Positions 16,850-51,444 of a stretch of 64,000 nt of DNA are shown piece by piece. The DNA lies in contig CBEVQY010000006.1 in the NCBI GenBank assembly GCA_965552135.1, positions 8,713-72,712 on the forward strand, in the 5' to 3' direction. The notes under the pieces are model-generated. The model saw only the letters and a program-made list of their open reading frames with translations, was not told the origin of the DNA and did no database searches. The DNA is from an uncultured bacterium. GTDB lineage: Bacteria; UBP14; UBA6098; B30-G16. Made by a program: the position numbers and the translations under genes. Every line of letters starts with the position of its first letter. Positions within the stretch are counted from its first letter, which is position 1.

Positions 16850-16856
16850 GGAGGCT

Positions 16857-19169: not shown

Positions 19170-19171
19170 AA

Positions 19172-19573: not shown

Positions 19574-19590
19574 TAACATGAGGAGTCATT

Positions 19591-22167
19591 ATGATGGTAT
19601 GGAGGGATGCAAGGATGTTGTTTTGGGCGTCGTTATTGTACGTGTCTCTTCTCGTTGCGCAGCCTGTGAAACATGGTGATAATGTTCTATTTCGCTTTTG
19701 GGCTCCACAGGCTAGGATTGTTTACCTTGCTGGCGAGTTCAACAGCTGGAACCCTCGCGCGCTGCCAATGCAGAGAGACTCATCAGGTATGTGGATAGTT
19801 GAGTTGCAGCTTGAGCCCGGCGTTTATCAATATAAGTTTGTAATAGATGGAATCGATTGGCGCGAGGATCCAAATAATCCCTATAAAGTCGATGACAACT
19901 TCGGAGGTTACAATTCCGTTTTGACGATAACTGCTGATGGTGATGTTGTACTGGGAGAACTTCCATATACGGGTCCTTTGTCCGACGAATATGTGGTTAA
20001 TGGGAAGTTGTATTTAAATATAATTTGGCACCAGCATCAGCCGTTGTATCTCGATCCAGAAGATGATAAATTAATAGGTCCTTGGGTTCGTGCACACGCT
20101 ACAAAGGATTATTACGATATGGCGGCAATGCTCGAGAAATTTCCCAACGTTCACTGTACGATCAATTTAACTTCAGTTCTGTTATTCCAATTGCAGGAAT
20201 ATTATGTAAAGCGCCTAGGAGAGTGCGTTGACTTAAGTGCGAATAGAGTTGATACTGCAAAATACTGGGCGAAATGGGGTGGGCGCGTAGATCCCTGGAT
20301 CGACCTTGCGTTGAAACCTACCGAGCTTTTTACTGCGGAGGACGATGCGTACCTTTATAAAAATGCGTGGAATGCTTTTGGAATTTCGGATGTTATGATT
20401 GAACGATTTCCTGAATATAAAGCGCTGAAAGAGAAGGGCGGGAATTATAGTATTGACGAAAAGCGTCAGATCAAGTTCTGGCACTATCTTGCTTGGTTCG
20501 ATCCCGATTTTCTGCGAGGACCCGTGAAGCTCGCCACCGGTTATGTTTGCGATCTATCGGACTTAGTCGAAGAGCGAGACGGCAAATTTTATCTCCGCCA
20601 TCCGGTAACTGAAGATGATTGTAATAGAATCATTGCCGAAGTTTATAAAGTATGTGCCGCGATTATCCCGATTCATAAGAAACTAATGTACGATCCAGAC
20701 ACACATCAGGGTCAGATCGAAATTATAACAACACCGTATTATCACCCTATTCTTCCTTTAATATGTTCAACGGATATAGCTCGCGTTTGTCAACCTGGCG
20801 CGCCGCTGCCCAAGCTTTTCTCATACCCTGAAGATGCGCAAGCGCAGGTCGCTAAAGCTGTTGCATATTATAAGTCTATTTTCGGAAAGGCACCGTATGG
20901 AATGTGGCCGGCTGAAGGAGCTGTTGCAGAAAACATTTTGTCCGTGTTGGCTTTGAATAATATATTATGGATGGCAACTGGCGACGGCGTTCTTTACCGT
21001 TCTCTTCCTGGAGCTCCTTTCTACTTTCCCTATCGGGTTGACACCGACACTATCCCAGGCTTTTCGGAAAATGCCCTTGCCATTGTTTTTAGGAATACTG
21101 AGCTGTCAGACAAAATAGGGTTTAGGTATCAGCGAAAAACGGGTGAGCAAGCTGCGGATGACTTTATTCGTTCTATTATAAAATACGCTTCCCCGGACGA
21201 GGACAGGTTGCTGACGGTGATTCTCGACGGCGAGAACGCATGGGAGTGGTATCGACTTGACAATGATGGTAAACAGTTTCTTCACGCGTTATATCGTAAA
21301 TTGTCGAAGCTGACTGAGGAAGGGAAGGTTATAACGGTGACACCTATCGAGTATATAATGGGTAATCCAGCCCGAGGCGTTCCCCCTCATCCCGTAACTG
21401 CGATGCCAGAGATAGAGCCTCTTTGGCCTGGTTCGTGGATCAACGCCAACTTCGATACTTGGATCGGTGAAGACGAAGAGAATCGCGCCTGGGAGTACTT
21501 GCTTCAAACTCGGCAGGACTTGGGCACGTCTGGGATTGCGCCACCGGATCCCGCTGAAAGTTGTCCAGATGCTGGTTCGCCGGCCTACTGCAGATATATG
21601 GCGTGGGAGGAAATGTATGCGGCCGAGGGAAGCGACTGGTTCTGGTGGTATGGGCAGGACCAAGGAGCCCCCGGCGGGGACAAGCCGTTTGAACGTATAT
21701 TCTTGACTCATCTTAAAAGCGTGTATAGTTTTATGAAGGAGTGCGGTTGGAAAGGGGAGATGCCGCAGTTTGAGCCGATCCTTACCGGCCTCGCCGGTGG
21801 AGGCGGTGTTATGGCAGAGTCCAGCAAAATGGTAAAAGTTATATTTACCTGTGATGCGCGTGCGATAAATGTACCCGATGCTATATATATAGCGGGTGAA
21901 TATCCCGAGCTTGGTTCTTGGGTACCTAATAAAGTACGCATGTATGACGACGGCACTCACGGTGACGAAGTTGCAGGCGATGGGATATGGACCATAACCT
22001 TCGAGTTCCCTGTTGGCACATCCGTTCAGTATAAATATACTAACTCCGGCAAAATCGGTGTTTGGAGCCCGAGCGAGGAGTTTCCGGCGATAAATCGGAA
22101 AATATATGTTCGTGACGAAGGAAATGGCACGATGATCGTTCGAGATATTTTTGGGAAAATGGACTAA
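19591..22167 (+). CDS. Glycoside hydrolase family 57 alpha-glucan-active enzyme with N-terminal CBM48 and C-terminal CBM-like module, secreted
   Basis: Signal peptide. N-terminal CBM48 (YLAGEFNSWNP...GVYQYKFVIDGIDWREDPNNP). GH57 conserved regions IIWHQHQPLY, GQIEIITTPYYHPILPL, WPAEGAV, VILDGENAWEW, AEGSDWFWWYG. C-terminal module DDGTHGDEVAGDGIWT...YKY. Confidence 0.75.
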   Translation: MMVWRDARMLFWASLLYVSLLVAQPVKHGDNVLFRFWAPQARIVYLAGEFNSWNPRALPMQRDSSGMWIVELQLEPGVYQYKFVIDGIDWREDPNNPYKVDDNFGGYNSVLTITADGDVVLGELPYTGPLSDEYVVNGKLYLNIIWHQHQPLYLDPEDDKLIGPWVRAHATKDYYDMAAMLEKFPNVHCTINLTSVLLFQLQEYYVKRLGECVDLSANRVDTAKYWAKWGGRVDPWIDLALKPTELFTAEDDAYLYKNAWNAFGISDVMIERFPEYKALKEKGGNYSIDEKRQIKFWHYLAWFDPDFLRGPVKLATGYVCDLSDLVEERDGKFYLRHPVTEDDCNRIIAEVYKVCAAIIPIHKKLMYDPDTHQGQIEIITTPYYHPILPLICSTDIARVCQPGAPLPKLFSYPEDAQAQVAKAVAYYKSIFGKAPYGMWPAEGAVAENILSVLALNNILWMATGDGVLYRSLPGAPFYFPYRVDTDTIPGFSENALAIVFRNTELSDKIGFRYQRKTGEQAADDFIRSIIKYASPDEDRLLTVILDGENAWEWYRLDNDGKQFLHALYRKLSKLTEEGKVITVTPIEYIMGNPARGVPPHPVTAMPEIEPLWPGSWINANFDTWIGEDEENRAWEYLLQTRQDLGTSGIAPPDPAESCPDAGSPAYCRYMAWEEMYAAEGSDWFWWYGQDQGAPGGDKPFERIFLTHLKSVYSFMKECGWKGEMPQFEPILTGLAGGGGVMAESSKMVKVIFTCDARAINVPDAIYIAGEYPELGSWVPNKVRMYDDGTHGDEVAGDGIWTITFEFPVGTSVQYKYTNSGKIGVWSPSEEFPAINRKIYVRDEGNGTMIVRDIFGKMD

Positions 22168-22186
22168 CTAACCTAAGGAGGTAACA

Positions 22187-23422
22187 ATGCGTATTATAAG
22201 AATACTCCTACTTCTGACGGCAGCTTTGGCGATTTTGACGTCCTGCGGCAGGAAACAGAATAGGGTCACGACCATAACGATTTGGCACCAGATGCAAGTC
22301 GAAGGGCGCAGTGTACTTAGGAAATTATGCGATGAGTATCAAAAACTACATCCAAATGTTAAAATTGAACTTTTGTATAAAGAAACGGAGGAGCTGCGTT
22401 CAGCGTTCCAAACTGCTGCTCTGGCTGGCTCGGGACCTGAACTTGTGTATGGTCCTGCTGATCAAATTGGACCTTTTGCTAAAATGAAGATTATATTGCC
22501 TCTTGACACACTGTTCTCATCGGATACATTAAAGCATTTTGATCCTAAGTCATTAACCTACTTTGAGGGTCATCTGTATCAAATAGGTGATAGAGTCGGC
22601 AACCATTTAGCGCTAGTTTACAATAAAGGGCTTGTTTCTACCCCTCCTCAAACATCGGAAGAGCTTATTAAAATAGGTGGGCAATTAACCAAAGACATCG
22701 ACGGCGATGGACGGATAGACCAATATGCTCTTGTCTGGAATTACACTGAACCTTATTTCTTTGTTCCGTTCATAGGGGGTTTTGGAGGCTGGATTATGGA
22801 CGAAAATGCCCGTCCAACTCTGAATACACCAGCTGTCGTAAACGCATTTAAGTTTATCGTGGCGCTTCGCGACAGCTACAAGATTATTCCGAAGGAATGT
22901 GATTATGATATGGCTGATGCTCTTTTCAAGGAAGGGCGAGCTGCCATGATTATAAACGGTCCTTGGTCGTGGGGTGGATATATTAAAGCGGGGATCGATA
23001 TTGGTATTGCTCGCATTCCTAAAATGTCTGAGACTGGACTATGGCCAACACCTATGTTCTCGCCTAAAGGGTATTCAATAAACGAAAATATTTCTGCGAG
23101 CAAACTGAAGCAAGTCGTTGAGTTACTGTATTATCTCACCTCACCGCGTTCTGAGCTTGAGTTTACTAAGGTGCTCGGGACGATACCATCGAGGCTGGAG
23201 GCACAAAAGGATACGGTTGTTGTGAATAATCCGATTATAAAAGCCTCCAAGGAGCAGCTTGAGGTTTGTAAGCCTATGCCTGTTGTGCCGGAGCTGCGCG
23301 CGATCTGGGACGCGATGAGACCGGCTTATCAAGCGGTCTTAGCGGGTACGATGACCCCTGAGGATGCAGCCAAAGCTATGCAAAAAGAAGCCATTAAAAA
23401 AATAAAGGAGATGTATGAATAA
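22187..23422 (+). CDS. ABC transporter substrate-binding lipoprotein, maltose/maltodextrin-type (MalE-like)
   Basis: Lipobox LTSC and family 1 solute-binding-protein features (ITIWHQMQ..., GPWSWGGY). 411 aa. Confidence 0.8.
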   Translation: MRIIRILLLLTAALAILTSCGRKQNRVTTITIWHQMQVEGRSVLRKLCDEYQKLHPNVKIELLYKETEELRSAFQTAALAGSGPELVYGPADQIGPFAKMKIILPLDTLFSSDTLKHFDPKSLTYFEGHLYQIGDRVGNHLALVYNKGLVSTPPQTSEELIKIGGQLTKDIDGDGRIDQYALVWNYTEPYFFVPFIGGFGGWIMDENARPTLNTPAVVNAFKFIVALRDSYKIIPKECDYDMADALFKEGRAAMIINGPWSWGGYIKAGIDIGIARIPKMSETGLWPTPMFSPKGYSINENISASKLKQVVELLYYLTSPRSELEFTKVLGTIPSRLEAQKDTVVVNNPIIKASKEQLEVCKPMPVVPELRAIWDAMRPAYQAVLAGTMTPEDAAKAMQKEAIKKIKEMYE

Positions 23423-24317
23423 AATGAAGGGAAGTTTACACAAGAGCGAAGCATTTTTTAAGTATATATTCCTCACTCCAGCGCTTTTGGTTATTTTTGC
23501 CGTAGTCGTTTATCCGTTCGTATATAATATCGTGTTATCACTATCTAACATGAGCATGACCCACTTCCGCGACTGGAGGCTCGTCGGTTTTGCTCAATAT
23601 AAAAAGGTTTTTACGGAACCAATATTTTACTCTGTCTTCCTGAAAACGGTGATTTGGACGGTTGTCAACGTATTTTTCCATGTCGTCATAGGCGTTTTTT
23701 TGGCTGTTTTGCTCAACCGCAATCTTCCTGGGAAAAGCGTGTACAGAACGTTGCTTATCATTCCCTGGGCTGTTCCGCAGTATATTACTGCTCTGACCTG
23801 GCGCGGAATGTTTAACTATGAGTACGGCGCTGTCAACCTCTTCCTGTCCAAATTCCTGCATCTACCTATGATCCAATGGCTCAAACATCCGTTTTATGCT
23901 TTTGTCGCATGTATAATAACGAACGTTTGGCTTGGTTTTCCGTTTATGATGGTTATCGCCTACGGTGGGCTTCAAGCAATACCGCGCGAGCTCTACGACG
24001 CCGCTGAGGTCGATGGCGCAACTGCTTGGCAGAAGTTCTGGAAAATAACTGTGCCTTACCTTAAACCTGTTATGACGCCTGCCATTATCTTGGGCATCAT
24101 ATGGACGTTCAACAACCTGAACGTGGTCTGGCTTGTGTCGAACGGCGGAGAACCTTCAGATAAAACGCATATTCTCGTCTCATATGTATATAAAGCGGCT
24201 TTTAACCTGTATCGTTACGGCTACGCTGCGGCGTTGTCGATGGTTATATTCCTAATTCTGCTTATATTCGCTGTGCTTTTCATAAAGCAGACTAAGGCGA
24301 CGGAAAGCATATATTGA
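23415..24317 (+). CDS. Carbohydrate ABC transporter permease (MalF-like)
   Basis: Six-TM permease with EAA-type loop (GATAWQKFWKITVPYLKP). 8-bp overlap with the upstream binding-protein gene. Confidence 0.8.
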   Translation: MNKMKGSLHKSEAFFKYIFLTPALLVIFAVVVYPFVYNIVLSLSNMSMTHFRDWRLVGFAQYKKVFTEPIFYSVFLKTVIWTVVNVFFHVVIGVFLAVLLNRNLPGKSVYRTLLIIPWAVPQYITALTWRGMFNYEYGAVNLFLSKFLHLPMIQWLKHPFYAFVACIITNVWLGFPFMMVIAYGGLQAIPRELYDAAEVDGATAWQKFWKITVPYLKPVMTPAIILGIIWTFNNLNVVWLVSNGGEPSDKTHILVSYVYKAAFNLYRYGYAAALSMVIFLILLIFAVLFIKQTKATESIY

Positions 24318-25162
24318 GAGGTTCGGCCATGAAGAGGCGACGACGAATAGTAGATGCCCTTATTTATGTATTTCTAACCTGCTTTACGGCTGCAACCCTT
24401 TATCCCGTTGTGCGGGTTGTGTCGATATCGCTTCGACCTGGCGACAGACTTCTGTCCACATCGCTGCGGATAATACCCAAGGACGCGACCTTAGAGGCAT
24501 ATAGACGCCTTTTCACCGAAACACCCTTCTTGCGCTGGATGTTAAACTCCCTCATCGTCTCAGCTGCCGTAACTTTAACCGGTGTTGTGCTTGCTGCGAC
24601 CGCTGGTTATATTTTCTCTAAGCACGATTTTATTGGAAAAAAACTCAGCCTAACGGCAATTCTGACGACGCAGATGTTCCCCGCTACTATGTTGCTTCTG
24701 CCCATGTATATTATGTTGTCTAAGCTTGGGCTGATCAACAGTTACTTAGGATTGATTATAGTTTACACTGCCACAGCTCTGCCGTTTTGCATATGGCAGA
24801 TGAAGGGTTATTACGATACCATCCCAAACTCGCTCTACGAGGCTGCCATAATCGATGGGTGTTCCCACTTCCAGGCGTTTTATAAGGTTATTCTGCCCCT
24901 TGCTGCTCCAGCGCTCGTTATAACGGCTTTGTTCTCGTTTATGTCTGCGTGGTCGGAATATATTGTTGCTGCGCAGATACTACAGCAGCCCGATATGTTT
25001 ACTCTCCCCCTCGGGTTGAAGCAGTTTCAGTCCAACATGACGACGCAGTGGGGGCTTTATGCCGCTGGCGCCGTCGTTGTGTCGATTCCCGTCGTCGTGC
25101 TTTTTATAATCTTGAGCCGATGGCTCATAAGCGGCTTGACGCTTGGCAGCGTTAAGGAATAA
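24314..25162 (+). CDS. Carbohydrate ABC transporter permease (MalG-like)
   Basis: Permease with EAA motif ([25 protein letters not shown]). 4-bp overlap with the upstream permease. Confidence 0.8.
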
Positions 25163-25182
25163 AAAGCACAGCGAGGTGCAGT

Positions 25183-26238
25183 ATGGCGGAGGTCGTTCTG
25201 AAAAAGGTAAATAAAATATATCCCGGCGGCGTGCATGCCATAAAGGACGTTTCGCTCGAGGTAGAGGACGGTGAGTTTCTCGTTCTCGTCGGTCCTTCCG
25301 GGTGTGGAAAGTCGACGCTTCTTAGGCTCATCGCCGGTCTTGAGGAGGCTACGTCGGGCGAGATCATAATAGGCGGCAGGGTTGTAAACGACGTTGCGCC
25401 GAAGGACAGGGATATATCGATGGTCTTTCAGAACTACGCCCTCTACCCGCACATGACGGTCTACGAGAACATGGCGTTCGGACTTAAGATACGCAAGTTC
25501 CCGAAGGATGAGATCGACAGGCGTGTGAGGGAGGCGGCGGAGATGCTGGGTCTGACGGACCTTCTGGATCGCAAGCCCAAGGCTCTCTCCGGCGGGCAGA
25601 GGCAGCGTGTTGCGCTCGGCAGAGCCATCGTGCGAAAGCCCAAGGTGTTCTTGTTCGACGAGCCTTTGTCAAATCTCGACGCAAAGCTTAGGGTGCACAT
25701 GAGGACCGAGATAAGCAAGCTCCACCAGAGGCTTGGGACCACGATGATATACGTAACCCACGACCAGGTCGAGGCGATGACGATGGGCGACAGGATCGCC
25801 GTCCTCAAGGATGGCGTCATCCAGCAGCACGACACGCCGATGAAGCTTTACAACGATCCCGTGAACATGTTCGTTGCGGGTTTCATAGGCTCCCCCGCAA
25901 TGAACTTCATCGATGGGTCGGTTTCGGGCGAGGTCATAACGCTTGGTGAGGTCTTATTGCCGAAGCCCAGGCAGGTTGAGCCGCCCGGTGGGGAGCTTGT
26001 GGTCGGGATAAGACCGGAGCACTTCGTCGTCGATCCGGAGGCTCCGCATCTTTCCGCCGTCGTCGAGGTTGTGGAGCCTATGGGGAACGAGACCTTCATC
26101 TACTTCCAGCTCGGCGGGAGGCAGGTTGTGGCTCGCATACCCGCAAGCTACGCCGTCCGCGTGGGCGATAAAGTCCCCATCCGCATCGACACAGAGAGGA
26201 TAAAGTTCTTCGACCCCAAAACGGGTCTTAGGCTTTAG
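25183..26238 (+). CDS. Sugar ABC transporter ATP-binding protein (MalK/UgpC-like)
   Basis: Walker [11 protein letters not shown]-loop, [14 protein letters not shown] signature, Walker [11 protein letters not shown], and a C-terminal TOBE-like regulatory domain. GC-rich codon usage again. Confidence 0.9.
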
Positions 26239-32436: not shown

Positions 32437-32562
32437 AACGAAGTCAAGTTAAGCACGATCCCGTTGTGGCGCAACCGATAAGGGGCTCGGGCGCCCCAAA
32501 AAGGACTTGATTAGTTCCGAGGGCGGCGGTTATTTTTGTGGAAAGGCAAGGAGGTGCCGGGT

Positions 32563-34836
32563 ATGGTCAGGCGGTGTTTTTGGATTTGTCTATCGTTGGC
32601 TTTTGGTCTTTGTTTTGGCGCAAGCGGCGGTCCGGATGAGTTCGGGTACCGCTGGGTCGACTCCGATGAGCCCGGAGGACCCGCCTTCGAGTGGATCGAG
32701 ATAAGCTCCACGGGCGAGGTTCTGTCGCTCCACTGCGACGACTGCACCGACGAAATAACCCTGTCTGCGCCGTTCGAGTTCTATGGCGACGAATACACCC
32801 ACGCGAAGGTTTCGTCCAACGGATACATAAGCTTTGACCTTTCGATGACGTGGTATCCGATAACCGTGGGTCCGTTTCCTGATCCGTTCTCGCCCAACCT
32901 CGTCATTGCGCCCTACAATATGGACCTGAACCCGAGCTTAAGCCCGGGCGACATCTACTTCCAAGATTTCGGCGACAAGGCGGTGATAGAGTGGAAGGAG
33001 ATAAGGGAGTATGGGAGCTCGGCGACGGGGACGTCCACTTTCGAGGTCATTCTGCACTACGGCAGGAGGGAGATCATCTTTCAGTACCTCGAGACGCGCG
33101 TAGCCACCCACACCGCATACGTTGGGATAGAGGACGCCTCGGGCTCGGTCGGTCTCAACGTCTGGAGCTGGAGCAGCGATCCACCCGACAGCTACGCGAT
33201 CCGTTTGCGCGCAACGCCTGTGGCAACTCCGCCCTACGGCTGCAACTTCGAAATCGGGTGCGATGACTTTTCGTTCCCCGGAACGACCGGCTGGGAGTGG
33301 GGGATATTGCCCACAAGCTCGCCCGCCTTCCCGCCGTCGACGGGCGTGAAGTGCGTTGCCACCGTCCTTGCGGGCGACTACTCGAACAACGCCGACTGGG
33401 TGTTCGAAACGCCACACATCGACGCAACCACAATAACCTGGCCCATCGTGGACTTTTGGCACTACTACGACTGCGAGGAGGGTCACGACGGGGGCGTTGT
33501 GGAGGTTTCCACCGACGACGGCGCAAGCTGGGTTATAGTTGAGCCCGAGGACGGTTACCCGACGACGATGACCACAGGTCCTCTCGCCGGCATGAACGCG
33601 TTTTCGGGCTCAAGCGGCGGATGGCATAAGGTCTCCTTCGACCTCTCGGACTACGCGGGGCAGGAGTTTGTGATGCGGTTCCACTTCATCTCCGACGATG
33701 CAAACACAGGCCCCGGGTGGTACATAGACGACTTCGGCTATCATCAGGCCTACGGCTTCCTCCACGGCTACGTCGACCTTGGCTACTTCGAGCCCGATTC
33801 CGGCGCGCTCGTGGAGATCGTCGATCTGGGGCGGTCGACCCTCACCGACACAAGTGGCTACTTCGTCTTCGACTCCGTCGACGTCGGTGAGCACTATCTG
33901 CGCATCTCAAGACCCCACTTCGTAACGCGCGACTCCATATACTTCTCCATGGCGAGGTTCGACACGGTGTATTTGGAGGTTCTGCTTGCGCCCGAGCTTT
34001 ACTCCGAGGATTTCGAGGAGGGCAACGGCGATATGGCTGCTGATCCCGTCGACGGCTGGCAGTGGGGCAGACCCGACTCACTCTTCGAAACCGGTCCGGC
34101 GGTGGCTCACTCGGGAACGCTTTGTTGGGGGACCAACCTCGCGGGGAACTACTCCAACAACGCCGACTGGAAGCTTGTCGTTCAGGTTCCGCTTTATGAG
34201 GTTCGCTGGCCGCTACTCAGCTTCTACACGTGGTATAAATTCAACGGCGAGTGGGCGGGCATGCTTTACGACGGCGGCAACGTGAAGGTTTCCGTCGACA
34301 GCGGCGCGACCTGGCAGATAGTCTACCCTGTTGAGGGTTACGATGGCATCGTCGGCGCCCACAACGACTACCTCGGCAGCGAGCCCGCCTTTGGCGGAAT
34401 GGAGAACGGCAACTACTGGCACGAGGTTCACTTCCCGCTTTACGATTTTGCGGGGTCACCTGTGATCTGGGTGATGTTCGAGCTTGGCAGCGACGGCGCA
34501 GGCACCGCGGCGGGATGGTACATCGACGATGTGCGCCTCGCCGAGGATTCGACCTACGCGGGCGTTTTCGAAGGGACGGCGGTTCCCGCCAAGCCTTTGC
34601 TTGCGGTGGCGCCCAATCCGTTCAACGCAGCGTGTCGAATAAGCTACGTAGCGCGCGGCGGCGTCATCTCGATCCTTGATCTTACGGGGCGGTGTGTGGC
34701 TCGCTTCGAGCTGTCTGGGAAGTCAGGCAGGGGCTACGTCGTGTGGGATGCGGCGGGTTGCCCCAGCGGCGTATACACGGTTAAGCTTTCGGCGCAGGGC
34801 GCAGAGACGGCAAAGCGGGTCATCCTCGTTAGATGA
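32563..34836 (+). CDS. Secreted protein with two jelly-roll (MAM / choice-of-anchor-like) domains and a T9SS type A CTD
   Basis: Signal peptide. Two copies of ...VS.D.GA(S/T)W..V.P.(D/E)GY...W....F.L.D(Y/F)AG...GWYIDD. C-terminus APNPFNAACRISY...ILDLTGRCV...GVYTVKL. Confidence 0.55.
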   Translation: MVRRCFWICLSLAFGLCFGASGGPDEFGYRWVDSDEPGGPAFEWIEISSTGEVLSLHCDDCTDEITLSAPFEFYGDEYTHAKVSSNGYISFDLSMTWYPITVGPFPDPFSPNLVIAPYNMDLNPSLSPGDIYFQDFGDKAVIEWKEIREYGSSATGTSTFEVILHYGRREIIFQYLETRVATHTAYVGIEDASGSVGLNVWSWSSDPPDSYAIRLRATPVATPPYGCNFEIGCDDFSFPGTTGWEWGILPTSSPAFPPSTGVKCVATVLAGDYSNNADWVFETPHIDATTITWPIVDFWHYYDCEEGHDGGVVEVSTDDGASWVIVEPEDGYPTTMTTGPLAGMNAFSGSSGGWHKVSFDLSDYAGQEFVMRFHFISDDANTGPGWYIDDFGYHQAYGFLHGYVDLGYFEPDSGALVEIVDLGRSTLTDTSGYFVFDSVDVGEHYLRISRPHFVTRDSIYFSMARFDTVYLEVLLAPELYSEDFEEGNGDMAADPVDGWQWGRPDSLFETGPAVAHSGTLCWGTNLAGNYSNNADWKLVVQVPLYEVRWPLLSFYTWYKFNGEWAGMLYDGGNVKVSVDSGATWQIVYPVEGYDGIVGAHNDYLGSEPAFGGMENGNYWHEVHFPLYDFAGSPVIWVMFELGSDGAGTAAGWYIDDVRLAEDSTYAGVFEGTAVPAKPLLAVAPNPFNAACRISYVARGGVISILDLTGRCVARFELSGKSGRGYVVWDAAGCPSGVYTVKLSAQGAETAKRVILVR

Positions 34837-34905: not shown

Positions 34906-35265
34906 TTAGGTCAGATCCTTGAGGCTGTCCAGTAGGGCTTTGAGGGTTTTCCTGACCACATGCCTTTTGTCGGAGGGGAGGGATCTGTAAGCTGCCAAAA
35001 GTTTTGAGATTTCCTCCTCCTTCTGCCAGTCGGCTCTTCCGTGTTGGGGTATCTCTTCGAAGACCTCGGCCAGGTGCACGCCGAGGGCTTTAGTTATTGC
35101 GAAGAGGACCCCGAGTGAGGGGTTTGTTGCGCCTCGCTCGATGTCGCTTATGTGGCTTGCGTTTACTCCCGCCTCGAGTGCGAGGTCGAGTTGGCTTATC
35201 CCCCTCGCCTTGCGCAGCGAACGAATCCGCTCACCGACTATTCGGAGAAATTCTGATTTTTCCAT
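34906..35265 (-). CDS. XRE-family helix-turn-helix transcriptional regulator
   Basis: HTH_XRE motif LRKARGISQLDLALEAGVNASHISDIERG. Start trimmed to MEKSEF... (ATG verified at 35263-35265). Confidence 0.7.
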   Translation of the reverse strand: MEKSEFLRIVGERIRSLRKARGISQLDLALEAGVNASHISDIERGATNPSLGVLFAITKALGVHLAEVFEEIPQHGRADWQKEEEISKLLAAYRSLPSDKRHVVRKTLKALLDSLKDLT

Positions 35266-35288
35266 GGTCAGTTTGTATCTTAGCGAAA

Positions 35289-35352
35289 TTTGTCTTTGTG
35301 AAAATCGACTAAAGACAAAATTTTTCTTGACAATATCGACTGTAGACAAAAT
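35289..35352. promoter_or_regulatory. Putative operator: inverted repeat TTTGTCTTT-N13-AAAGACAAA plus two direct repeats ATCGACTnnAGACAAAAT spaced 31 bp apart
   Basis: Read directly from the sequence: inverted repeat at 35289-35319; direct repeats at 35304-35321 and 35335-35352. They overlap the -35/spacer of the predicted promoter for the 35396 gene, in the divergent region beside the XRE gene. Confidence 0.45.
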
Positions 35353-35355
35353 ATT
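35327..35355 (+). promoter_or_regulatory. Putative sigma70-type promoter TTGACA-N17-AATATT for the 35396 gene
   Basis: TTGACA at 35327-35332, 17-nt spacer, AATATT at 35350-35355. ATG lies 40 nt downstream, preceded by the RBS GAGGAGGTG. Confidence 0.4.
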
Positions 35356-35395
35356 TGAAACGAGTGATCGTTTGATCGTTTCGAGGAGGTGAAGC

Positions 35396-37027
35396 ATGAG
35401 GCACGTACGCGTTTGGGTGGTCTTTCTTCTCTGTGGGTGCGTTTTTGGGCAGGTGCCGCGGACTCTGTCATTTCAAGGGAAGTTGGTGGGGGTGTCCTCA
35501 CCGGTAGATATGTATTTTTACATCTACGACACAGAGACCGGTGGCACGCCATTGTGGACAGAGTATCATCCGGATGTGGTTTTGAGCGGCGATGGGTTGT
35601 TTAATGTAATTCTCGGCGAGACGAACCCGATAGATCTTGATTTTTCTGCTCAATATTGGCTTGAAGTCAGGGTTGACATGACTGTTCTTCCGAACCGTTT
35701 CAAGCTTACCGCTGGCGCTTACTCCATTCACGCAATTCTTTCTGACACGGCAAAATATACCGTTTATGCTGATACTGCCGTGTATGCTTTATCCTGTGCT
35801 GATGGCGGAAGCGCACAGGATACATTTGTCGCATACTGGGATAGCCTAAGGAATGTTCCGGCCGGTTTCGCGGATGGAACTGACGACATTGGCAACGACG
35901 TTCTCGATGATCTTTCGGATAATTCGATAAACGACCTCTCCGATGTAAACACAAGCGGTGTTAGCATAGGTCAGGTCTTGAAGTGGGATGGAACAAACTG
36001 GATACCGGCGAACGATAGTGTAGGCAGTGGGGGAAGTAGCATAAGCATTTCCCAAGGAACTGGGATTTCTTGTTCGCCAAACCCTATAACCTCAACTGGT
36101 GTGGTTTCCTTTGATCAGAGTTGGGGGGATTCTCGGTATGTAAATGAAGGGCAGTCCGCCGGCGGTGATTTGACGGGAAGTTATCCTAACCCGACAGTAT
36201 CCAAGATTCAAGGTAGGCCGGTTTCAAGTAATGCACCGTCGGTTGGTCAGGTTCTTAAATGGGATGGTTCACAATGGGCTCCCGGGACGGATGAAACAGG
36301 AGGTAGTGGCAATTGGTATTTGTCAGGCGATAAGCTTCGCCCTAACAGTTCGAGTTGGAGAGTTGTCGTTGGAAACGATTTTGACTTTGGGGAAATAATG
36401 CTTATGACCCGAAATGAAAATAGTGGAGGAGCGGCAATAGGGGGTTATGCATACGGCAGTTCTGTTGTAGGTGTTTTTGGGTATTGCGATAATGAATTTG
36501 CGGGGGTTCAAGGCAATGCAGGTGGGGGCAATTACGGCGTTTATGGATTTAACGGTGATTATGGTGTGTATGCTTCAGGTGATATGGGGTGTTCTGGCAG
36601 TAAATCAGCTGTTGTTAGAATTGGTGACGATGCTTATGAATTTTACACGGTGGAGTCGCCCGAGATATGGTTTGAAGATTTTGGTGAGGCAAAGCTTGAA
36701 AATGGTAGGGCTCATATTGAATTAGAGGAACTTTTCTTGCAGGCTTGCACAATTGATGAGGATCATCCTATGCAAGTTTTTATAACGCCCTATAGTCCTC
36801 TAGGGGAGTATTACATTGTAAGGCAAGCAACGGGTTTTGATGTAATACAAGTGGCTGGAGGAGAAAAAGATGCATCTTTCGGCTATCGCGTAATTGCAAA
36901 AAGAAAAGGCTATGAGAATATTCGAAATAGACGGGTGACGGAGACAGTGAAAGCTGATCCTGTTTTATATCCAGAACTTAGAAATGGTATGCCTAAATGG
37001 ATGAATCCCAGGTTTTCGGGGAGGTGA
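35396..37027 (+). CDS. Secreted tail-fibre-like repeat protein (hypothetical)
   Basis: Signal peptide. N-terminal motif LSFQGKL...YFYIYDTETGGTPLWTE...GLFNVILGE, repeated (S/A)(I/V)GQVLKWDG..W.P motifs, a Gly/Tyr-rich segment and a conserved C-terminal domain. AT-richer codon usage. Confidence 0.55.
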   Translation: MRHVRVWVVFLLCGCVFGQVPRTLSFQGKLVGVSSPVDMYFYIYDTETGGTPLWTEYHPDVVLSGDGLFNVILGETNPIDLDFSAQYWLEVRVDMTVLPNRFKLTAGAYSIHAILSDTAKYTVYADTAVYALSCADGGSAQDTFVAYWDSLRNVPAGFADGTDDIGNDVLDDLSDNSINDLSDVNTSGVSIGQVLKWDGTNWIPANDSVGSGGSSISISQGTGISCSPNPITSTGVVSFDQSWGDSRYVNEGQSAGGDLTGSYPNPTVSKIQGRPVSSNAPSVGQVLKWDGSQWAPGTDETGGSGNWYLSGDKLRPNSSSWRVVVGNDFDFGEIMLMTRNENSGGAAIGGYAYGSSVVGVFGYCDNEFAGVQGNAGGGNYGVYGFNGDYGVYASGDMGCSGSKSAVVRIGDDAYEFYTVESPEIWFEDFGEAKLENGRAHIELEELFLQACTIDEDHPMQVFITPYSPLGEYYIVRQATGFDVIQVAGGEKDASFGYRVIAKRKGYENIRNRRVTETVKADPVLYPELRNGMPKWMNPRFSGR

Positions 37028-37029
37028 AG

Positions 37030-37530
37030 ATGAATCTCACGGTGATGATAGGAATCTTGCTGTTGATTATTTCCGCTGGGGCTCAATCTCTCCCCTGGTG
37101 GGTTTTCGACAACGGTGGCGGGATGCAAATTCTCGGCAGCGATGATACAGCCTATGTCTCTATTGGGCAGACTGCTATCGGTGAGAAAAGCACCGAAACA
37201 CTTTACCTCGGCGCAGGTTATCTTTACATCGAAGCTGCGTCTATGCGGGCAAAAGAAAATTCTGTCAGCCCTCAGTTACCGTTCATCCGTATAACCCCTA
37301 ATCCGTTTAACACGTCGTGCTTAATTGTAGTGGGGTCCGGCACCAACCGCACCGTGCAGGTCGAAGTGTACGATGTGCTTGGCAAAAGTGTTGCATCCTG
37401 GCAGCTATTTCCTCGTGCCGGAGTCCATACGATAAAATGGAATCCTAGTAACCTGCCCTCCGGAATCTACGTGGTTAAGATAAGCACTGATAACGGGTCG
37501 GTCACAAAAACGGCTGCTCTTGTAAGATAA
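37030..37530 (+). CDS. Mini secreted protein consisting of a signal peptide, a short domain and a T9SS type A CTD
   Basis: Start chosen at the ATG (37030) immediately after the upstream stop, with the RBS GAGGTGAAG. C-terminus ITPNPFNTSCLIVV...VEVYDVLGKSV...GIYVVKIS...AALVR. Confidence 0.5.
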   Translation: MNLTVMIGILLLIISAGAQSLPWWVFDNGGGMQILGSDDTAYVSIGQTAIGEKSTETLYLGAGYLYIEAASMRAKENSVSPQLPFIRITPNPFNTSCLIVVGSGTNRTVQVEVYDVLGKSVASWQLFPRAGVHTIKWNPSNLPSGIYVVKISTDNGSVTKTAALVR

Positions 37531-37579: not shown

Positions 37580-39136
37580 TTACCTCACACACAAGACCCT
37601 CGTCGTTGCGGCAAAGGGGTCTGCCCTGAGTATGTAGAGACCTGACCGCAGCGTGCTCAGTTCGACTTCGACGCTAGTTGCGCCGGCGGGAACGGAGATC
37701 CTTGTCACGAGCTCTCCCTTGCTGTTGAACACTGAAAGTGCCCGCGCTCCGGGAGGAAGTTTAACCACACATCCCGAGTTGAACGGGTTTGGCGATGCCG
37801 AAAGCATCGTTTTGGGCTTATGTGTGCGCGTCTCGGCGACGGCCCAGATGCTGTCTGTGGGGGCGATTATAAGGGGTTCCGGCGTGAGCACCACGCTATC
37901 GCAGGAGACAATGGATGTGTCGCCAAGCCCGTTTTCTGTGAGGAGCCAGCCCGCCGCGTGCGGGCAGAAGTCCACCGTTGTTTCGCCCGTCCAGCGCCAC
38001 GCAACGAAAACGGTATCGCGCGGCACCATAGCCTCGTCGCGCCTCACGAACCTAAAGCACACGCATCCCGCGCCGATGTCCACGTTCGAGTCGAACTCCG
38101 TTCCCCAGAGGAAGCGGCGCAGGGTGGGGTAGGTGTACGGATATGGTCCTCCCGGGGTGAAGTTGAAGGATGATGCCGATGGGTTTGCGCTGCGCCAGGC
38201 GTAGTACTCTTGTGCTACATCAGCTGCCGAGGCGAAGCGGGCTATGGTATCGCCGAAGGGGGTGGTGTGTCCGACGAAGTTTTCCGAGAGCCACTGCAGG
38301 ATTTCGGTGTGGTCGTCGTGGCGGTATTGTATGGCTCTTGGGTGCGCAAGCCAGCTTATCACCCACACCTTCTGCGGCGTGCCGTGGCGTATCTGCGCAA
38401 GCCACTCGATGTAAAGCATAAGGAAGCGTCTCTTCCAGAACGGTGGATCCGTCGGGCACCACGGATGCGCCTCGGGCAAAAGCGGGATCTGGACGTAGGG
38501 TTGCGATAGGTTCTCGCGGAGGAGGTCGTCGAGGTCGAGGGGGTCGAGGCGAACCTGCCACGGGTTCCAGGGGTAGTGGTAAAGAACCGACTCCGCCTCT
38601 ATCTCCTGATTGAGCTCCATTATGGCTATCTGGTAGAAGCCGAATGAGTCCATAATCTCCGGCAGGAACTCGCGGAAGAACGGGGCGATGGTTCTGTTGT
38701 TTTCGGCACCAATGGCCGAGTCGACGCAGACCTTATTCATTTGTATGACCTGCCAGACGGTCTCGGGGTCGGCGGTGTAGATGTACTCCACCGGCGCAAA
38801 AAGCCTCCAGTCGTGGCGGGCGTAGCGCCAGTAGTTGGGGTGCACGTGTGTGCCTATGTCTCCGCCGAGGGCGAGGATGCTCACAAGCTCGCCCTGGTCG
38901 GATGAGTCGACGACGTATTCCATAAACTCGCCCGTGCTCTGCACCGAAAGCGGAGCGCCGTAAGAGGCGGCAACGTCCCTGAGCCAGCAAAGCTCCCTTA
39001 TGCGCGTTGTGTAAGAGACTGTGTCCCCAAGCTCCGTCTCGAACGGCTCGATGTGGACGTTGACTATGACGTTTATAGGCGGCTGATGCGCAAGGACAGC
39101 CCCAAAAAGCGACGCCAAAAGCGCTGCAACAACCAT
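37580..39136 (-). CDS. Secreted hypothetical protein with a T9SS type A CTD
   Basis: Signal peptide. C-terminus ASPNPFNSGCVVKL...LSVFNSKGELV...GLYILRA...VLCVR. Central region of unknown function. Confidence 0.55.
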   Translation of the reverse strand: MVVAALLASLFGAVLAHQPPINVIVNVHIEPFETELGDTVSYTTRIRELCWLRDVAASYGAPLSVQSTGEFMEYVVDSSDQGELVSILALGGDIGTHVHPNYWRYARHDWRLFAPVEYIYTADPETVWQVIQMNKVCVDSAIGAENNRTIAPFFREFLPEIMDSFGFYQIAIMELNQEIEAESVLYHYPWNPWQVRLDPLDLDDLLRENLSQPYVQIPLLPEAHPWCPTDPPFWKRRFLMLYIEWLAQIRHGTPQKVWVISWLAHPRAIQYRHDDHTEILQWLSENFVGHTTPFGDTIARFASAADVAQEYYAWRSANPSASSFNFTPGGPYPYTYPTLRRFLWGTEFDSNVDIGAGCVCFRFVRRDEAMVPRDTVFVAWRWTGETTVDFCPHAAGWLLTENGLGDTSIVSCDSVVLTPEPLIIAPTDSIWAVAETRTHKPKTMLSASPNPFNSGCVVKLPPGARALSVFNSKGELVTRISVPAGATSVEVELSTLRSGLYILRADPFAATTRVLCVR

Positions 39137-47260: not shown

Positions 47261-49498
47261 TCAGCGCACGAGGGCAAGCTTTTTGTGCACGACCTTGCCG
47301 TCTGTGGTGTGGACCACCGCGATGTAGACCCCCGAGGTGATGCCCTCCTCGGGCTGCCAGATCCATCTCCCTACGCACTCCTGAGGGACGTTGACCAGCC
47401 TGCCCAGAACATCGCATATCTCGACGGTGGAACCTCGGGGCGCAGCGATAACGCACGACGAGTTGAACGGATTCGGGTATACGGAGATTTCCATTGCCTT
47501 CGGCTTGTTTTGGCTGTGTTCAGCGATTATTGACGAGCCGTATTCGTCTGCGCCGATGTCCCAGCCGGCGCCTTGGGGTCGATCGCCGCCTTCGAAATCG
47601 TAACCCGGTGCGTATATAACTGTGCCCCAGATTGGGACATAAATGGATTCCGCCCCCGCATCTATGCAGGGGGAGGTTTCGGAGAGGTGGAAAAGTGAAT
47701 CAGCAAAAAGCGGGTCGGCGTTTATGTTCCCGGGACCCCAGATGATTTCGGATCCAGTCTCGATATAGCATTCGCTGGAATCTATGTCCGTGTATGCAAC
47801 GAAGAGAGTGCAGGGATAGGGTGTGCCACCGGATTCATCGTATCTTACATAAACCTCATTTCCCGAACTGGCGGTATTTTGCCATAGGATGGTGTTGAAG
47901 ATTATTAGCTTAGAGTCTTCCCAGCAGTAAATCCCGCCGCCCTTGTTGCCTGCCGAGTTTCCGCATATTGTGTTGTTCATTATTGTTGGGTTGGACTCCT
48001 CCCAGCAGGAAATCCCGCCGCCATGGAGGTCTGCCGAGTTTCCGCATATTGTGTTATTCGCTATCGTCGCATTGCCGCAGGAAATCCCGCCGCCGTAATT
48101 TGCCGTGTTTCCGCTTATTGTGTTATTCGCTATCGTCGCGCTGTCGCAGTAAATCCCGCCGCCGGTCCAATCTGCTAAGTTTCCGTTTATTATATTGCTC
48201 ACTATTGTGGGGTTGTCCTCATCACGCCGGCAGTAAATCCCGCCGCCGTATTCTGCCGAGTTTCCGCTTATTGTGTTGTTCTCTATTGTCGGGCTGGAAT
48301 TATTATAGCAGTAAATTCCGCCGCCTTTGCTTGCCGAGTTTTCGCTTATTGTGTTGCCTGTTATTGTCGGGCTGGAGCTCCAGCAGTGAATCCCGCCGCC
48401 ATATTCTGCCGTGTTTTCATTTATTGTGTTATCTTCTATTGTTGGGGTGGAGCAGTAACAGTAAATCCCGCCGCCGTAGTTTTCTGCTGTGTTTCTGCTT
48501 ATTGTGTTGCTTTCTATCGTCGGATTGGACTCATCGCGGCAGTAAATTCCGCCGCCATGGAGGCCTGCCGAGTTTACGCTCATCGTGTTGCCTGTTATCG
48601 TCGGGCTGGAATTATTGCAGGAAATCCCGCCGCCACGGAATGCCGAGTTTCCGCTTATTATGTTGTTCGCTATTATTGGGTTGGATTCATAATAGCAGTA
48701 AATCCCGCCTCCGAGACTGTCCGCCCAGTTCCCGCTTATTGTGTTGTTTTCTACTGTCGGGCTGGAGTGGTCGCAGTAAATCCCGCCGCCATGGAGGCCT
48801 GCCGAGTTTACGCTCATCATGTTGCCTGTTATCGTCGGGCTGGAATTGTCGCAGGAAATCCCGCCGCCGTAATCTGCCGTGTTTCCGCTTATCATGTTGT
48901 TTGCTATTGTCGGGTTGGAAGAATATAAGCAGCCAATCCCACCGCCGTGGTCTGCTGAGTTTTTGCTTATTGTGTTGTTTTCTATCATCGGGCTGGAGTA
49001 TTCACAGTAAATCCCACCGCCGCAGTTATCAGGATGATCGCCAAACGCATTCCCATATTCAATTCTGCAGTACATCAGCGTGCAGCCCTCCGCCGCGTGA
49101 TAAAACCTTATGCCGTGATGACCGCCAGTGGAATCCGTCAAAACTGTATCCTGAGCCGTGAAGACTATGCTATCGGTCGGGGTGCCTATAGCCTTCAGCA
49201 CAGCATTACTGTCCACGCAGAACTTGTAGTGGCCGGTGAAGATTATCGAGCATCCAGGCTCTATCACGAGCATGCTGTCGGTGGGGATGTGGATTTCGCA
49301 ATCTACGTAGTACGGTGAGCACTCTACTGTCCACACGCCAAAAACGTCGCCACAGACGTGGGTGCCGTCTGTGGCAGTTGTTGAGGTCGTTTTGCGCGCT
49401 TTGGCATCGGCATCGGCGGTGCGCTCAAAAGAACCCGAAAAAGACTGGGGAAAACAGAAAGAGAAAATGACGGAGAAAACCAGAATCACTCTCCTCAT
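47261..49498 (-). CDS. Secreted right-handed parallel beta-helix repeat protein with T9SS type A CTD (paralog A)
   Basis: Start trimmed to MRRVILVFSVIFSFCF (ATG verified at 49496-49498). More than 15 tandem approximately 22-aa units NNTISGNSA..GGGIYC. C-terminus VYPNPFNSSCVIAAP...ICDVLGRLV...GVYIAVV...KLALVR. Confidence 0.7.
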   Translation of the reverse strand: MRRVILVFSVIFSFCFPQSFSGSFERTADADAKARKTTSTTATDGTHVCGDVFGVWTVECSPYYVDCEIHIPTDSMLVIEPGCSIIFTGHYKFCVDSNAVLKAIGTPTDSIVFTAQDTVLTDSTGGHHGIRFYHAAEGCTLMYCRIEYGNAFGDHPDNCGGGIYCEYSSPMIENNTISKNSADHGGGIGCLYSSNPTIANNMISGNTADYGGGISCDNSSPTITGNMMSVNSAGLHGGGIYCDHSSPTVENNTISGNWADSLGGGIYCYYESNPIIANNIISGNSAFRGGGISCNNSSPTITGNTMSVNSAGLHGGGIYCRDESNPTIESNTISRNTAENYGGGIYCYCSTPTIEDNTINENTAEYGGGIHCWSSSPTITGNTISENSASKGGGIYCYNNSSPTIENNTISGNSAEYGGGIYCRRDEDNPTIVSNIINGNLADWTGGGIYCDSATIANNTISGNTANYGGGISCGNATIANNTICGNSADLHGGGISCWEESNPTIMNNTICGNSAGNKGGGIYCWEDSKLIIFNTILWQNTASSGNEVYVRYDESGGTPYPCTLFVAYTDIDSSECYIETGSEIIWGPGNINADPLFADSLFHLSETSPCIDAGAESIYVPIWGTVIYAPGYDFEGGDRPQGAGWDIGADEYGSSIIAEHSQNKPKAMEISVYPNPFNSSCVIAAPRGSTVEICDVLGRLVNVPQECVGRWIWQPEEGITSGVYIAVVHTTDGKVVHKKLALVR
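47441..47800. repeat. Near-identical approximately 360-bp block shared with 49783-50142 (C-proximal coding region of the two beta-helix paralogs)
   Basis: Identical nucleotide strings read in both copies (e.g. gcgcagcgataacgcacgacgagttgaacggattcgggtatacggagatttccattgcc). Boundaries approximate. Confidence 0.7.
48890..49498. repeat. Near-identical approximately 600-bp block shared with 50830-51444 (5' coding region of the two beta-helix paralogs)
   Basis: Identical strings (e.g. ttgctattgtcgggttggaagaatataagcagccaatcccaccgccgtggtctgctgagt) and N-terminal approximately 200 aa identical except for a few substitutions. Boundaries approximate. Confidence 0.7.
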
Positions 49499-49581
49499 AA
49501 CTCCCTCCTTTGGTAAGCTCTTTGTAAAAATTAGCCGAGGTTCGAAGATGCGCAAGAGGGAAGTGATCTTTTGTGGGGATG

Positions 49582-51444
49582 TCATTTCAGATAGACGATT
49601 CGTTTTGCGCAGATGGCCGTAGTTGCTCGCTGCGGCGTTGTCGCGCAAACGAGATATATCCCCGCCGGAATGGATTTGTCGGGCTGCCAGATGTATCGCC
49701 TCATCCCGCGGTCTTTCGCGCTGGAGGGGAATTTTTTCACCACCTTTCCCAGCAGGTTGCAGATTTCTATGGTTGCTTCTGCAGGCGCAGCGATAACGCA
49801 CGACGAGTTGAACGGATTCGGGTATACGGAGATTTCCATTGCCTTCGGCTTGTTTTGGCTGTGTTCAGCGATTATTGACGAGCCGTATTCGTCTGCGCCG
49901 ATGTCCCAGCCGGCGCCTTGGGGTCGATCGCCGCCTTCGAAATCGTAACCCGGTGCGTATATAACTGTGCCCCAGATTGGGACATAAATGGATTCCGCCC
50001 CCGCATCTATGCAGGGGGAGGTTTCGGAGAGGTGGAAAAGTGAATCAGCAAAAAGCGGGTCGGCGTTTATGTTCCCGGGACCCCAGATGATTTCGGATCC
50101 GGTCTCGATATAGCATTCGCTGGAGTCTATGTCCGTGTATGCCACAAAGAGGATGCAGGGACGATCTCCAGAGTGTCTAACAAAAATCTCACTTCCTAAG
50201 CTGGCAGTATTTTGCCATAGGATGGAATTGAAGACCGTTAGGTTAGATTCGCGGCAATAGATGCCACCGCCACCATCTGCCGAGTTTTCGCTTATTGTGT
50301 TGTTCACTAACACCGGGCTAGAATACCATTCACAGCAAATTCCGCCGCCAATCCACGCCGAATTTCTGTTTATCGCATTGTTGATTACTGTTGGATTGGA
50401 GGCTAAGCAATAAATTCCACTACCGCCGATTGCCGAGTTTCTGCTTATTATGTTGCTTATTATCGTGGGGTTGGAGTTATGGCGGCAGAAAATTCCGCCC
50501 CCGTTAACCGCTGAGTTTTCAGTTATTATATTATTTGATATTATCGGCCTGGAATTATCACACCAAACTCCGCCGCCGCGCTGTGCTGAATTTCTACTTA
50601 TTGTGTTGTTTGCTAGCGTTGGGTTGGAGATCAAACAACAAATCCCGCCACAATCATCCGCCGCTGTGTTTTCGTCGATTTGGTTGTTTGTTATTGTTAG
50701 ATTGGAGTACCATTCGCAGTAAATTGCTCCCCCGCGGTGATTCGCTGAGTTTCTAAATATGGTGTTGTTCACTACTTCCGGGCTGGAACGGTTGCAGTAG
50801 ATTCCGCCGCCGCTGGATCTTGCTAAATCTCCACTTATCGTGTTGTTTGCTATTGTCGGGTTGGAAGAATATAAGCAGCCAATCCCACCGCCGTGGTCTG
50901 CTGAGTTTTTGCTTATTGTGTTGTTTTCTATCATCGGGCTGGAGTATTCACAGTAAATCCCACCGCCGCAGTTATCAGGATGATCGCCAAACGCATTCCC
51001 ATATTCAATTCTGCAGTACATCAGCGTGCAGCCCTCCGCCGCGTGATAAAACCTTATGCCGTGATGACCGCCAGTGGAATCCGTCAAAACTGTATCCTGA
51101 GCCGTGAAGACTATGCTATCGGTCGGGGTGCCTATAGCCTTCAGCACAGCGTTGCTGTCCACGCAGAACTTGTAGTGTCCGGTAAAGATTATCGAGCAGC
51201 CCGGCTCTATCAGGAGCATGCTGTCTGTGGGGATGTGGATTTCGCAGTCCACGTAGTAGGGTGAGCACTCTGCTGTCCATATGCCGGAAACGTTGCCGCA
51301 GACGTGGGTGCCGTCTGTGGCGGTTGTTGGGGTCGTTTTGCGCGCTTTGGCGCCGGCATCGGCGGTGCGCTCAAAAGAACTCGAAAAAGACCGGGGAAAA
51401 CAGAAAGAGAAAATGACGGAGAAAACCAGAATCACTCTCCTCAT
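49582..51444 (-). CDS. Secreted right-handed parallel beta-helix repeat protein with T9SS type A CTD (paralog B)
   Basis: Start MRRVILVFSVIFSFCF (ATG verified at 51442-51444). The N-terminal approximately 200 aa and an approximately 125-aa C-proximal block are near-identical to paralog A. Repeat core and the last approximately 65 aa differ. Confidence 0.7.
   Translation of the reverse strand: MRRVILVFSVIFSFCFPRSFSSSFERTADAGAKARKTTPTTATDGTHVCGNVSGIWTAECSPYYVDCEIHIPTDSMLLIEPGCSIIFTGHYKFCVDSNAVLKAIGTPTDSIVFTAQDTVLTDSTGGHHGIRFYHAAEGCTLMYCRIEYGNAFGDHPDNCGGGIYCEYSSPMIENNTISKNSADHGGGIGCLYSSNPTIANNTISGDLARSSGGGIYCNRSSPEVVNNTIFRNSANHRGGAIYCEWYSNLTITNNQIDENTAADDCGGICCLISNPTLANNTISRNSAQRGGGVWCDNSRPIISNNIITENSAVNGGGIFCRHNSNPTIISNIISRNSAIGGSGIYCLASNPTVINNAINRNSAWIGGGICCEWYSSPVLVNNTISENSADGGGGIYCRESNLTVFNSILWQNTASLGSEIFVRHSGDRPCILFVAYTDIDSSECYIETGSEIIWGPGNINADPLFADSLFHLSETSPCIDAGAESIYVPIWGTVIYAPGYDFEGGDRPQGAGWDIGADEYGSSIIAEHSQNKPKAMEISVYPNPFNSSCVIAAPAEATIEICNLLGKVVKKFPSSAKDRGMRRYIWQPDKSIPAGIYLVCATTPQRATTAICAKRIVYLK

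Follow-up and report, generated by a model that had tools for sequence, protein, structure and literature searches.

A secreted tail-fibre-like protein and a small partner that may carry its sorting signal in trans in an uncultured UBP14 bacterium

Type IX secretion system (T9SS) substrates are at present identified through a C-terminal domain (CTD) of their own. How a large secreted protein without such a domain could be sorted to the cell surface is the question raised by a two-gene operon in a 64,000-nucleotide stretch of DNA (the window; contig CBEVQY010000006.1, positions 8,713 to 72,712, assembly GCA_965552135.1) from an uncultured bacterium of the GTDB lineage UBP14. The first gene of the operon encodes a 543-residue fibre-like protein that has no CTD, and the second a partner of 166 residues that has one. 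We lean, with modest confidence, towards reading the operon as a surface fibre built of phage tail-fibre modules together with a dedicated partner that would carry the sorting or anchoring signal in trans. A sequence-only reading had described an AT-richer module of three genes here (the two above and a divergent XRE regulator), with inverted and direct repeats over the promoter and one ribosome-binding site (RBS) sequence common to the fibre and partner genes, and had proposed either a two-partner arrangement or the remnant of a split gene. The divergent gene order, the architecture of both secreted proteins, the tail-fibre likeness, the repeats, the common RBS and the low GC content were all recovered by the present analysis, and the two-partner arrangement gained support from other genomes; the three-gene unit and the split-gene remnant did not stand, and the statement that the fibre family is widespread in the Fibrobacteres-Chlorobi-Bacteroidetes (FCB) group proved too narrow, since members of the family also occur outside FCB bacteria.

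The pairing is conserved well beyond the window, across many bacteria that are not related to one another. A gene with the partner domain adjoined a fibre gene in at least 13 distinct loci (numbered L; proteins are numbered P) of very different composition. The neighbour had the fibre N-terminal domain (N-domain) in the window, L001, L002, L004, L008, L015, L016, L019, L020/21, L023, L025 and L026; in L010 and L027, where the end of the contig cuts the N-terminus of the fibre, it was identified by a fibre-type C-terminal region. The evidence for pairing comes from the informative loci examined rather than from all 406 fibre homologues. When searches were started from the partner, a fibre gene was found beside every informative locus, and when they were started from the fibre N-domain, a partner was found at every informative locus except L024. 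The genes surrounding the paired loci were housekeeping genes. In L002, L010 and L027 the gene calls for fibre and partner share 4 nt. In the window, the start codon of the partner lies 2 nt past the fibre stop codon, which is overlapped by the partner RBS (37021-37029).

The arrangement varied between loci. The closest homologue of the fibre, P0002, has a partner gene after it in L001, and P0122 comes after a fibre gene with the same N-domain and a different C-terminus. The same arrangement holds for P0123 (L004-L007), P0125 (L008) and P0126 (L010), the neighbour of the last having an S74-type end. A metagenome scan with the fibre N-domain yielded L015, L016 and L020/21, each with a partner directly downstream; a scan of genome contigs yielded only L011 (on the same contig as L002) and two weak matches from Levybacteria. 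In L025 the partner gene stands immediately upstream of the fibre P0034. Arrays of three to five fibre genes with near-identical N-domains and different tips were found in L018, L019 and L023: in L019 (5944-11935) three fibre genes are followed by one partner, in L023 (3337-12332) one partner precedes a run of four fibres, with a fifth N-domain open reading frame (ORF) farther upstream, and L018 (5794-12298) ends inside its third fibre gene, with no partner seen there. L022 is a truncated contig. In L026 one fibre is paired with the 91-residue partner P0133, and a second fibre is followed by a 91-residue ORF that is only loosely partner-like and has no score with the partner hidden Markov model (HMM). 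L027 combines a fibre that has the C-terminal domain of the window's fibre (ESP.NWFEDFG...YRIVAKRLGYE) with the 90-residue partner P0132. Across paired loci the C-terminal regions of the fibres were often unrelated and the N-domain was kept; the conserved unit thus appears to be the fibre N-domain plus the small partner, with shaft and tip exchangeable. Among features seen at these loci, several array fibres end in an S74-like chaperone region plus coiled coil, the paired fibre of L015 (5941-6954, 338 residues) contains an apparent collagen-like Gly-X-Y stretch with antisense GP-rich repeats at 6516-6806, and on the short contig L009 a partner gene has a HicA/HicB toxin-antitoxin pair (667-1117) directly downstream.

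Besides a signal peptide, the fibre itself has the SFQGKL...YDTETGGTPLW motif, a pair of GQVLKWDG..W.P units and a stretch rich in Gly and Tyr. Searched against Pfam and NCBIfam, it gave nothing significant and no CTD, and none of its 120 best homologues had a T9SS CTD of its own (local CTD HMM plus PNPF motif). Its likeness to tail fibres was apparent in several comparisons: phrog_9729 (tail fiber) matched the GQVLKWDG..W.P units (5.1e-10), phrog_6616 (tail protein) matched the C-terminal domain (3.4e-10), and some homologues bear DUF5907 and Peptidase_S74 domains, the latter at the end of the protein. In the AlphaFold2 model the N-terminal (residues ~21-105) and C-terminal (residues ~400-520) beta-sandwiches were predicted with a predicted local distance difference test score (pLDDT) above 90 and the hairpin units were confident; the shaft had a pLDDT below 50, as one would expect when a fibre is modelled as a monomer. 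Foldseek returned 17 matches at E<=1e-3 in BFVD, with phage tail, minor-tail and tail-fibre-like proteins at the top, and in the PDB weak generic Ig-like matches with none at E<=0.001 (best, the Pam1 cyanophage tailspike, E=0.013). No solved structure related by sequence to the fibre was found, the best E-value for the N-domain being a non-significant 0.33. At E<=0.001, 406 homologues were obtained among 8000 candidates scored; those with a named source belonged for the most part to candidate division WOR-3, and some to Zixibacteria, KSB1, Saprospiraceae/Bacteroidetes or Chloroflexi. The fibre is a cellular protein that bears a signal peptide and is made in part of tail-fibre modules.

The partner consists of a signal peptide whose core is hydrophobic and whose cleavage site is AxA-like, as read from the sequence (residues 3-15 were modelled as a helix by AlphaFold2), a small domain of about 50 residues and a type A CTD. 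The CTD scored above the cutoffs of both TIGR04183 (49.8 bits, cutoff 23) and Por_Secre_tail (PF18962; E=4.8e-11, 43.2 bits, cutoff 27), and was modelled as a beta-sandwich spanning residues 85-164. The small domain (consensus W.V.D.GGG..S..Y..SIGQ.AIG....Y.LGAGY) matched nothing in Pfam, NCBIfam, PHROG or the PDB; the whole partner had no Pfam match outside its CTD and hit no PHROG family at E<=0.1, so no similarity to Tfa or gp38 was detected. The small domain and the fibre N-domain constitute two undescribed domains. Word-indexed searches with the partner were very insensitive (two matches, then seven), the first giving P0122 as the single homologue, and an exhaustive two-sequence profile search of 1.84 billion representatives recovered nine partner-domain cluster representatives; the size of the family is underestimated by these searches.

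The tail of the partner differed between lineages. At most loci it was a T9SS CTD (among others on P0122, P0123, P0125 and P0127), and pairs whose partner has no T9SS CTD also exist: P0129 and P0137 end in a hydrophobic helix followed by RRRR, and P0130, P0131, P0133 and P0135 in a short [YF]LP[LIC][IVT]x[KR] tail. In L026 and L027, unrelated secreted proteins end in the same YLPLVxR-type tail as the fibre partners, which suggests that this tail is a C-terminal sorting signal of that lineage. The tail of the partner thus seems to follow the sorting system of the lineage or host. As for the host of the window, at least eight ORFs with a type-A-like CTD were found within the 64 kb, which suggests that it uses the T9SS heavily.

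Taken as a mechanism, the favoured reading runs as follows. Both proteins would be exported by Sec, each with a cleavable signal peptide, and the domain of about 50 residues in the partner would bind the conserved N-domain of the fibre. The CTD would then take the folded complex through the T9SS, or take the partner alone, with the fibre docking later at the surface; carriage as a folded complex is conceivable because the T9SS moves folded proteins (PMC9251779). Once the CTD had been removed the partner would be fixed to the outer surface, the fibre would be tethered by its N-terminus, and its variable C-terminal domain would point outward as the binding tip of a putative adhesin. Generalised across phyla, the same adaptor would dock on domesticated phage-fibre adhesins and lend them whichever C-terminal signal the host employs (T9SS CTD, transmembrane and Arg-rich anchor or YLPLVxR-type tail), a wider proposal that we advance only tentatively and with some doubt.

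Two further observations favour this reading, each with a caveat, and others weigh against it. In 12 pairs, identity in the partner domain co-varied with that in the fibre N-domain (Mantel r=0.81, p~2e-4), a correlation also expected from plain co-inheritance of adjacent genes. The small domain alone was not confidently folded by AlphaFold2 (pLDDT <50), which beside a well-modelled CTD would fit a domain that folds on its partner and may also reflect an alignment of five sequences. Against the reading, the partners of L023 and L010 have no recognisable sorting tail, no partner lies within 7 kb of the fibre P0032 (L024, a contig of 3.26 Mb whose name gives candidate division WOR-3), and the XRE gene is not conserved with the pair, so that its link to it is circumstantial. 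Our literature searches on the pair, the partner domain and in-trans T9SS sorting found nothing relevant, and no documented precedent was found for carriage of a CTD-less passenger by the T9SS.

Of the other explanations, an unlikely one, though it comes nearest, is that the partner is an assembly chaperone or tip adhesin analogous to Tfa or gp38, which would aid trimerisation of the fibre or cap its distal end and anchor nothing. The tight coupling directly downstream of a tail-fibre-like gene mimics the stf-tfa and gp37-gp38 layouts, and a domain that is not confidently modelled alone would suit a chaperone; however, the partner tracks the N-domain rather than the tip, paired fibres have unrelated C-terminal regions, fibres with different tips stand in arrays that share a single partner, and no PHROG match links it to such proteins. 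A periplasmic chaperone would moreover need no surface-sorting CTD, the tails vary by lineage as anchors would, and some paired fibres already carry their own intramolecular S74 chaperone. Slightly less probable still is that fibre and partner are independent surface proteins of one operon, the partner being ordinary mini T9SS cargo and the fibre reaching the surface by another route or staying in the periplasm. The solitary fibre of L024 agrees with such independence, but the adjacency recurs in loci of very different composition, including those whose partners have no T9SS CTD, and persists with the partner on either side of the fibre; every informative one of the nine partner-domain representatives stood beside a fibre gene.

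A phage origin of the operon as it stands, that is, a piece of a prophage or tailocin in which the fibre belongs to a phage-like particle, would account for the PHROG tail families, the BFVD fold matches, the adjoining XRE repressor and the foreign composition. We give it little credence, as the flanks of the module hold no other phage genes (the neighbours are T9SS cargo genes and an ORF of 736 residues whose translation looks like that of a class A penicillin-binding protein), a Sec signal peptide is present on both proteins and is lacking in virion fibres, and the phage contigs of IMG/VR share just residues ~173-305 of the fibre, the central repeats: neither the N-domain nor the partner was found in any of the 15 IMG/VR loci with those repeats. 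The least probable explanation is that a frameshift or stop codon severed from the fibre a CTD that it once had. Genes only 2 nt apart and a fibre without a CTD are what a split would leave; yet the CTD was fused in 0 of 120 homologues, the partner gene has an RBS and encodes a signal peptide of its own, stands apart from the fibre gene at every locus and in some cases (L025, L023) lies upstream of it, and versions without a CTD exist. The absence of fused homologues together with the independent partner genes rules the remnant out. The features on which the favoured reading of a fibre with a sorting partner draws are listed with their coordinates in the table.

Table. Coordinates of genes, control elements and protein domains (positions in the window unless a locus or residue range is given)
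Feature	Position	Strand	Detail or basis
XRE gene	ORF 34906-35397; likely gene 34906-35265	-	119 aa; start at internal ATG 35265
Control region between divergent genes	35266-35395	.	130 nt, 35% GC; sequence
Inverted repeat	35286-35297 and 35311-35322		AAATTTGTCTTT/AAAGACAAAATT; sequence
18-bp direct repeats	35304-35321 and 35335-35352		sequence
AGACAAA half-sites	35289-35295; 35313-35319; 35344-35350	-; +; +	sequence
Promoter-like site	TTGACA 35327-35332; AATATT 35350-35355		17-nt spacer; 10/12 matches
Tandem 8-nt repeat, fibre gene 5' untranslated region	35365-35380		TGATCGTT x2, perfect
RBS of fibre gene	35386-35394		GAGGTGAAG
Fibre-like gene	35396-37027	+	543 aa; ORF map, sequence
Fibre signal peptide	aa 1-18		
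Fibre N-terminal conserved beta-sandwich (putative docking domain)	aa ~20-114 (35453-35737)		
Fibre hairpin units	aa ~176-302		two GQVLKWDG..W.P units
Fibre G/Y-rich segment	aa ~325-400		
Fibre C-terminal beta-sandwich	aa ~400-520		ESPEIWFEDFG...YRVIAKRKGYE
Partner gene	37030-37530	+	166 aa; ORF map, sequence
Partner signal peptide	aa 1-18		MNLTVMIGILLLIISAGA, then QS...
Partner N-domain	aa 19-70 (37084-37239)		~50 aa
Partner type A T9SS CTD	aa ~85-166 (37282-37527)		after linker
[YF]LP[LIC][IVT]x[KR]-tailed proteins, L026	1797-3290; 1148-1423; 4975-5250	-; +; -	
[YF]LP[LIC][IVT]x[KR]-tailed protein, L027	1013-1279	+	

The composition of the module differed from that of its surroundings. GC content was ~0.47 in the module against ~0.60 in the flanks, and GC content at third codon positions (GC3) was 0.41 in the fibre gene, 0.53 in the partner gene and 0.63 in the XRE gene, relative to 0.74-0.79 in the flanking genes, which bears out the AT-richness read from the sequence. 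Close relatives sit in contigs of 41-50% GC, where the GC content of the module equals the contig background; together with the low GC3, this indicates that the compositionally foreign module was acquired horizontally from a donor of lower GC content. At the DNA level the best match was 78% over 366 nt (L001), which argues against a recent transfer from any sampled donor. Scars of insertion were sought around the module, and no nearby tRNA gene (the sole one lies at 61287) and no flanking direct repeats were found. The genes on both sides of the module (32536-34836, with an InhA-like MAM domain, and 37580-39136) encode proteins with T9SS CTDs.

Both module proteins have Gln at position +1 after the predicted signal peptidase site (35450, ..FG|QVP; 37084, ..GA|QSL), and this residue is kept in nearly all of their orthologues and not in the two flanking host CTD proteins. 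It recalls the Q-rule of Bacteroidetes, which is said not to hold for the whole FCB group (PMC5837995), and may be a clue to the lineage of the donor, or no more than a feature of the domains themselves.

Regulation of the operon is suggested by the divergent XRE gene. Its product matched HTH_3 (PF01381; E=4.5e-17, 62.3 bits, cutoff 23, residues 14-67) and, in PADLOC, CapH over residues 9-113, that is, full length (E=1.9e-14), and has a helical, oligomerisation-like C-terminal extension; the shorter gene given in the table is likely because the HTH_3 and CapH-like matches both begin at the internal ATG. The core of the direct repeats, the 16-nt CGACTRWAGACAAAAT (35306-35321 and 35337-35352), occurs nowhere else in the window (chance expectation 0.02), the second direct-repeat copy falls in the spacer of the promoter-like site, and three of the eight AGACAAA heptamers of the window lie within 62 bp of the control region. 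The fibre-gene RBS is part of a near-identical 16-nt repeat, TTTCGRGGAGGTGAAG, found ahead of both plus-strand genes (35379-35394 and 37014-37029). Judging from their geometry alone, it is plausible that the repeats act as operators and that the CapH-like XRE protein would repress the fibre operon here by binding the three half-sites, which bracket the -35 element and occupy the spacer. No homologue of the XRE protein was found at any other fibre locus (phmmer E<=1), which rules it out as a conserved third member of the module and marks the regulator as a local addition to the fibre/partner pair. A link to a defence system was also rejected, because PADLOC matched the helix-turn-helix (HTH) protein only and no defence genes were detected.

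Two other parts of the window are also low in GC. A larger island (14000-25200, GC 0.44-0.51 against ~0.60) holds genes for a GH57 enzyme, CBM48/CBM20 proteins and an ATP-binding cassette (ABC) sugar transporter (SBP_bac_8 plus two permeases), and looks like a horizontally acquired alpha-glucan/starch utilisation cluster. A third patch (47261-51600, GC 0.47-0.55) encodes two beta-helix/PMP-repeat proteins with T9SS CTDs.

If the operon does work as proposed, it would be the first case, among organisms that use the T9SS, of a CTD-less passenger exported or anchored by piggy-backing on a mini-cargo, and one adaptor would serve interchangeable fibre tips. Surface-proteome predictions that rely on the CTD would then miss such passengers. 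The pair would offer a simple, testable model for in-trans sorting by a system that moves folded proteins. Its two undescribed domains are markers of phage tail-fibre descendants that are cellular rather than viral and occur in candidate phyla that have been little studied; the modular design of N-terminus and tip suggests exchangeable adhesin specificities.

Among known systems, the regulator is nearest to the CapH/CapP regulators of CBASS (the antiphage signalling system based on cyclic oligonucleotides) and other immune operons (bioRxiv 10.1101/2022.04.27.489752). Like those and like the control proteins of restriction-modification systems, it is a small HTH protein with an oligomerisation-like C-terminal extension, and as with CapH it is divergent from the operon that it probably controls, with repeats in the common promoter. 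It differs in facing a surface-fibre operon rather than immune genes; no CapP-type metallopeptidase was found beside it, and the XRE gene stands alone, with a convergent CTD gene on one side and the fibre operon on the other. With respect to type Vb secretion (TpsA/TpsB), 'two-partner' is a descriptive term only, as the hallmarks of that system (an Omp85-type TpsB with POTRA domains, and a two-partner secretion (TPS) domain) gave no Pfam match in either module protein.

Phage tail fibres (stf/tfa, gp37/gp38 and the S74 endosialidase type) resemble the fibre in its DUF5907-like repeats, conserved N-terminus and variable tip, and share the placing of a small gene directly after the fibre gene. 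Unlike them, the fibre here is encoded by a cellular gene with a signal peptide, and its N-domain was not seen in the phage contigs searched; the partner differs from Tfa and gp38 in being dissimilar in sequence, in tracking the fibre N-terminus and in carrying a surface-sorting tail. Type A CTD cargo of the T9SS, such as the gingipains of Bacteroidota, is fixed to the outer surface after removal of the CTD. The partner likewise combines a Sec signal peptide with a type A CTD, but its passenger is only about 50 residues long, with no catalytic or known binding domain, whereas the apparent real surface effector, the large neighbouring fibre, has no CTD; to our knowledge, the T9SS has not been described as sorting cargo in trans. 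A further parallel is offered by the 'choice-of-anchor' domains, NCBIfam families that occur with alternative C-terminal sorting signals. The partner domain similarly bears a T9SS CTD, a transmembrane and Arg-rich tail or a YLPLVxR-like tail according to lineage, but it matches no NCBIfam model and does not form part of a large protein: it makes up a mini-protein by itself, which is tied to a neighbouring fibre gene.

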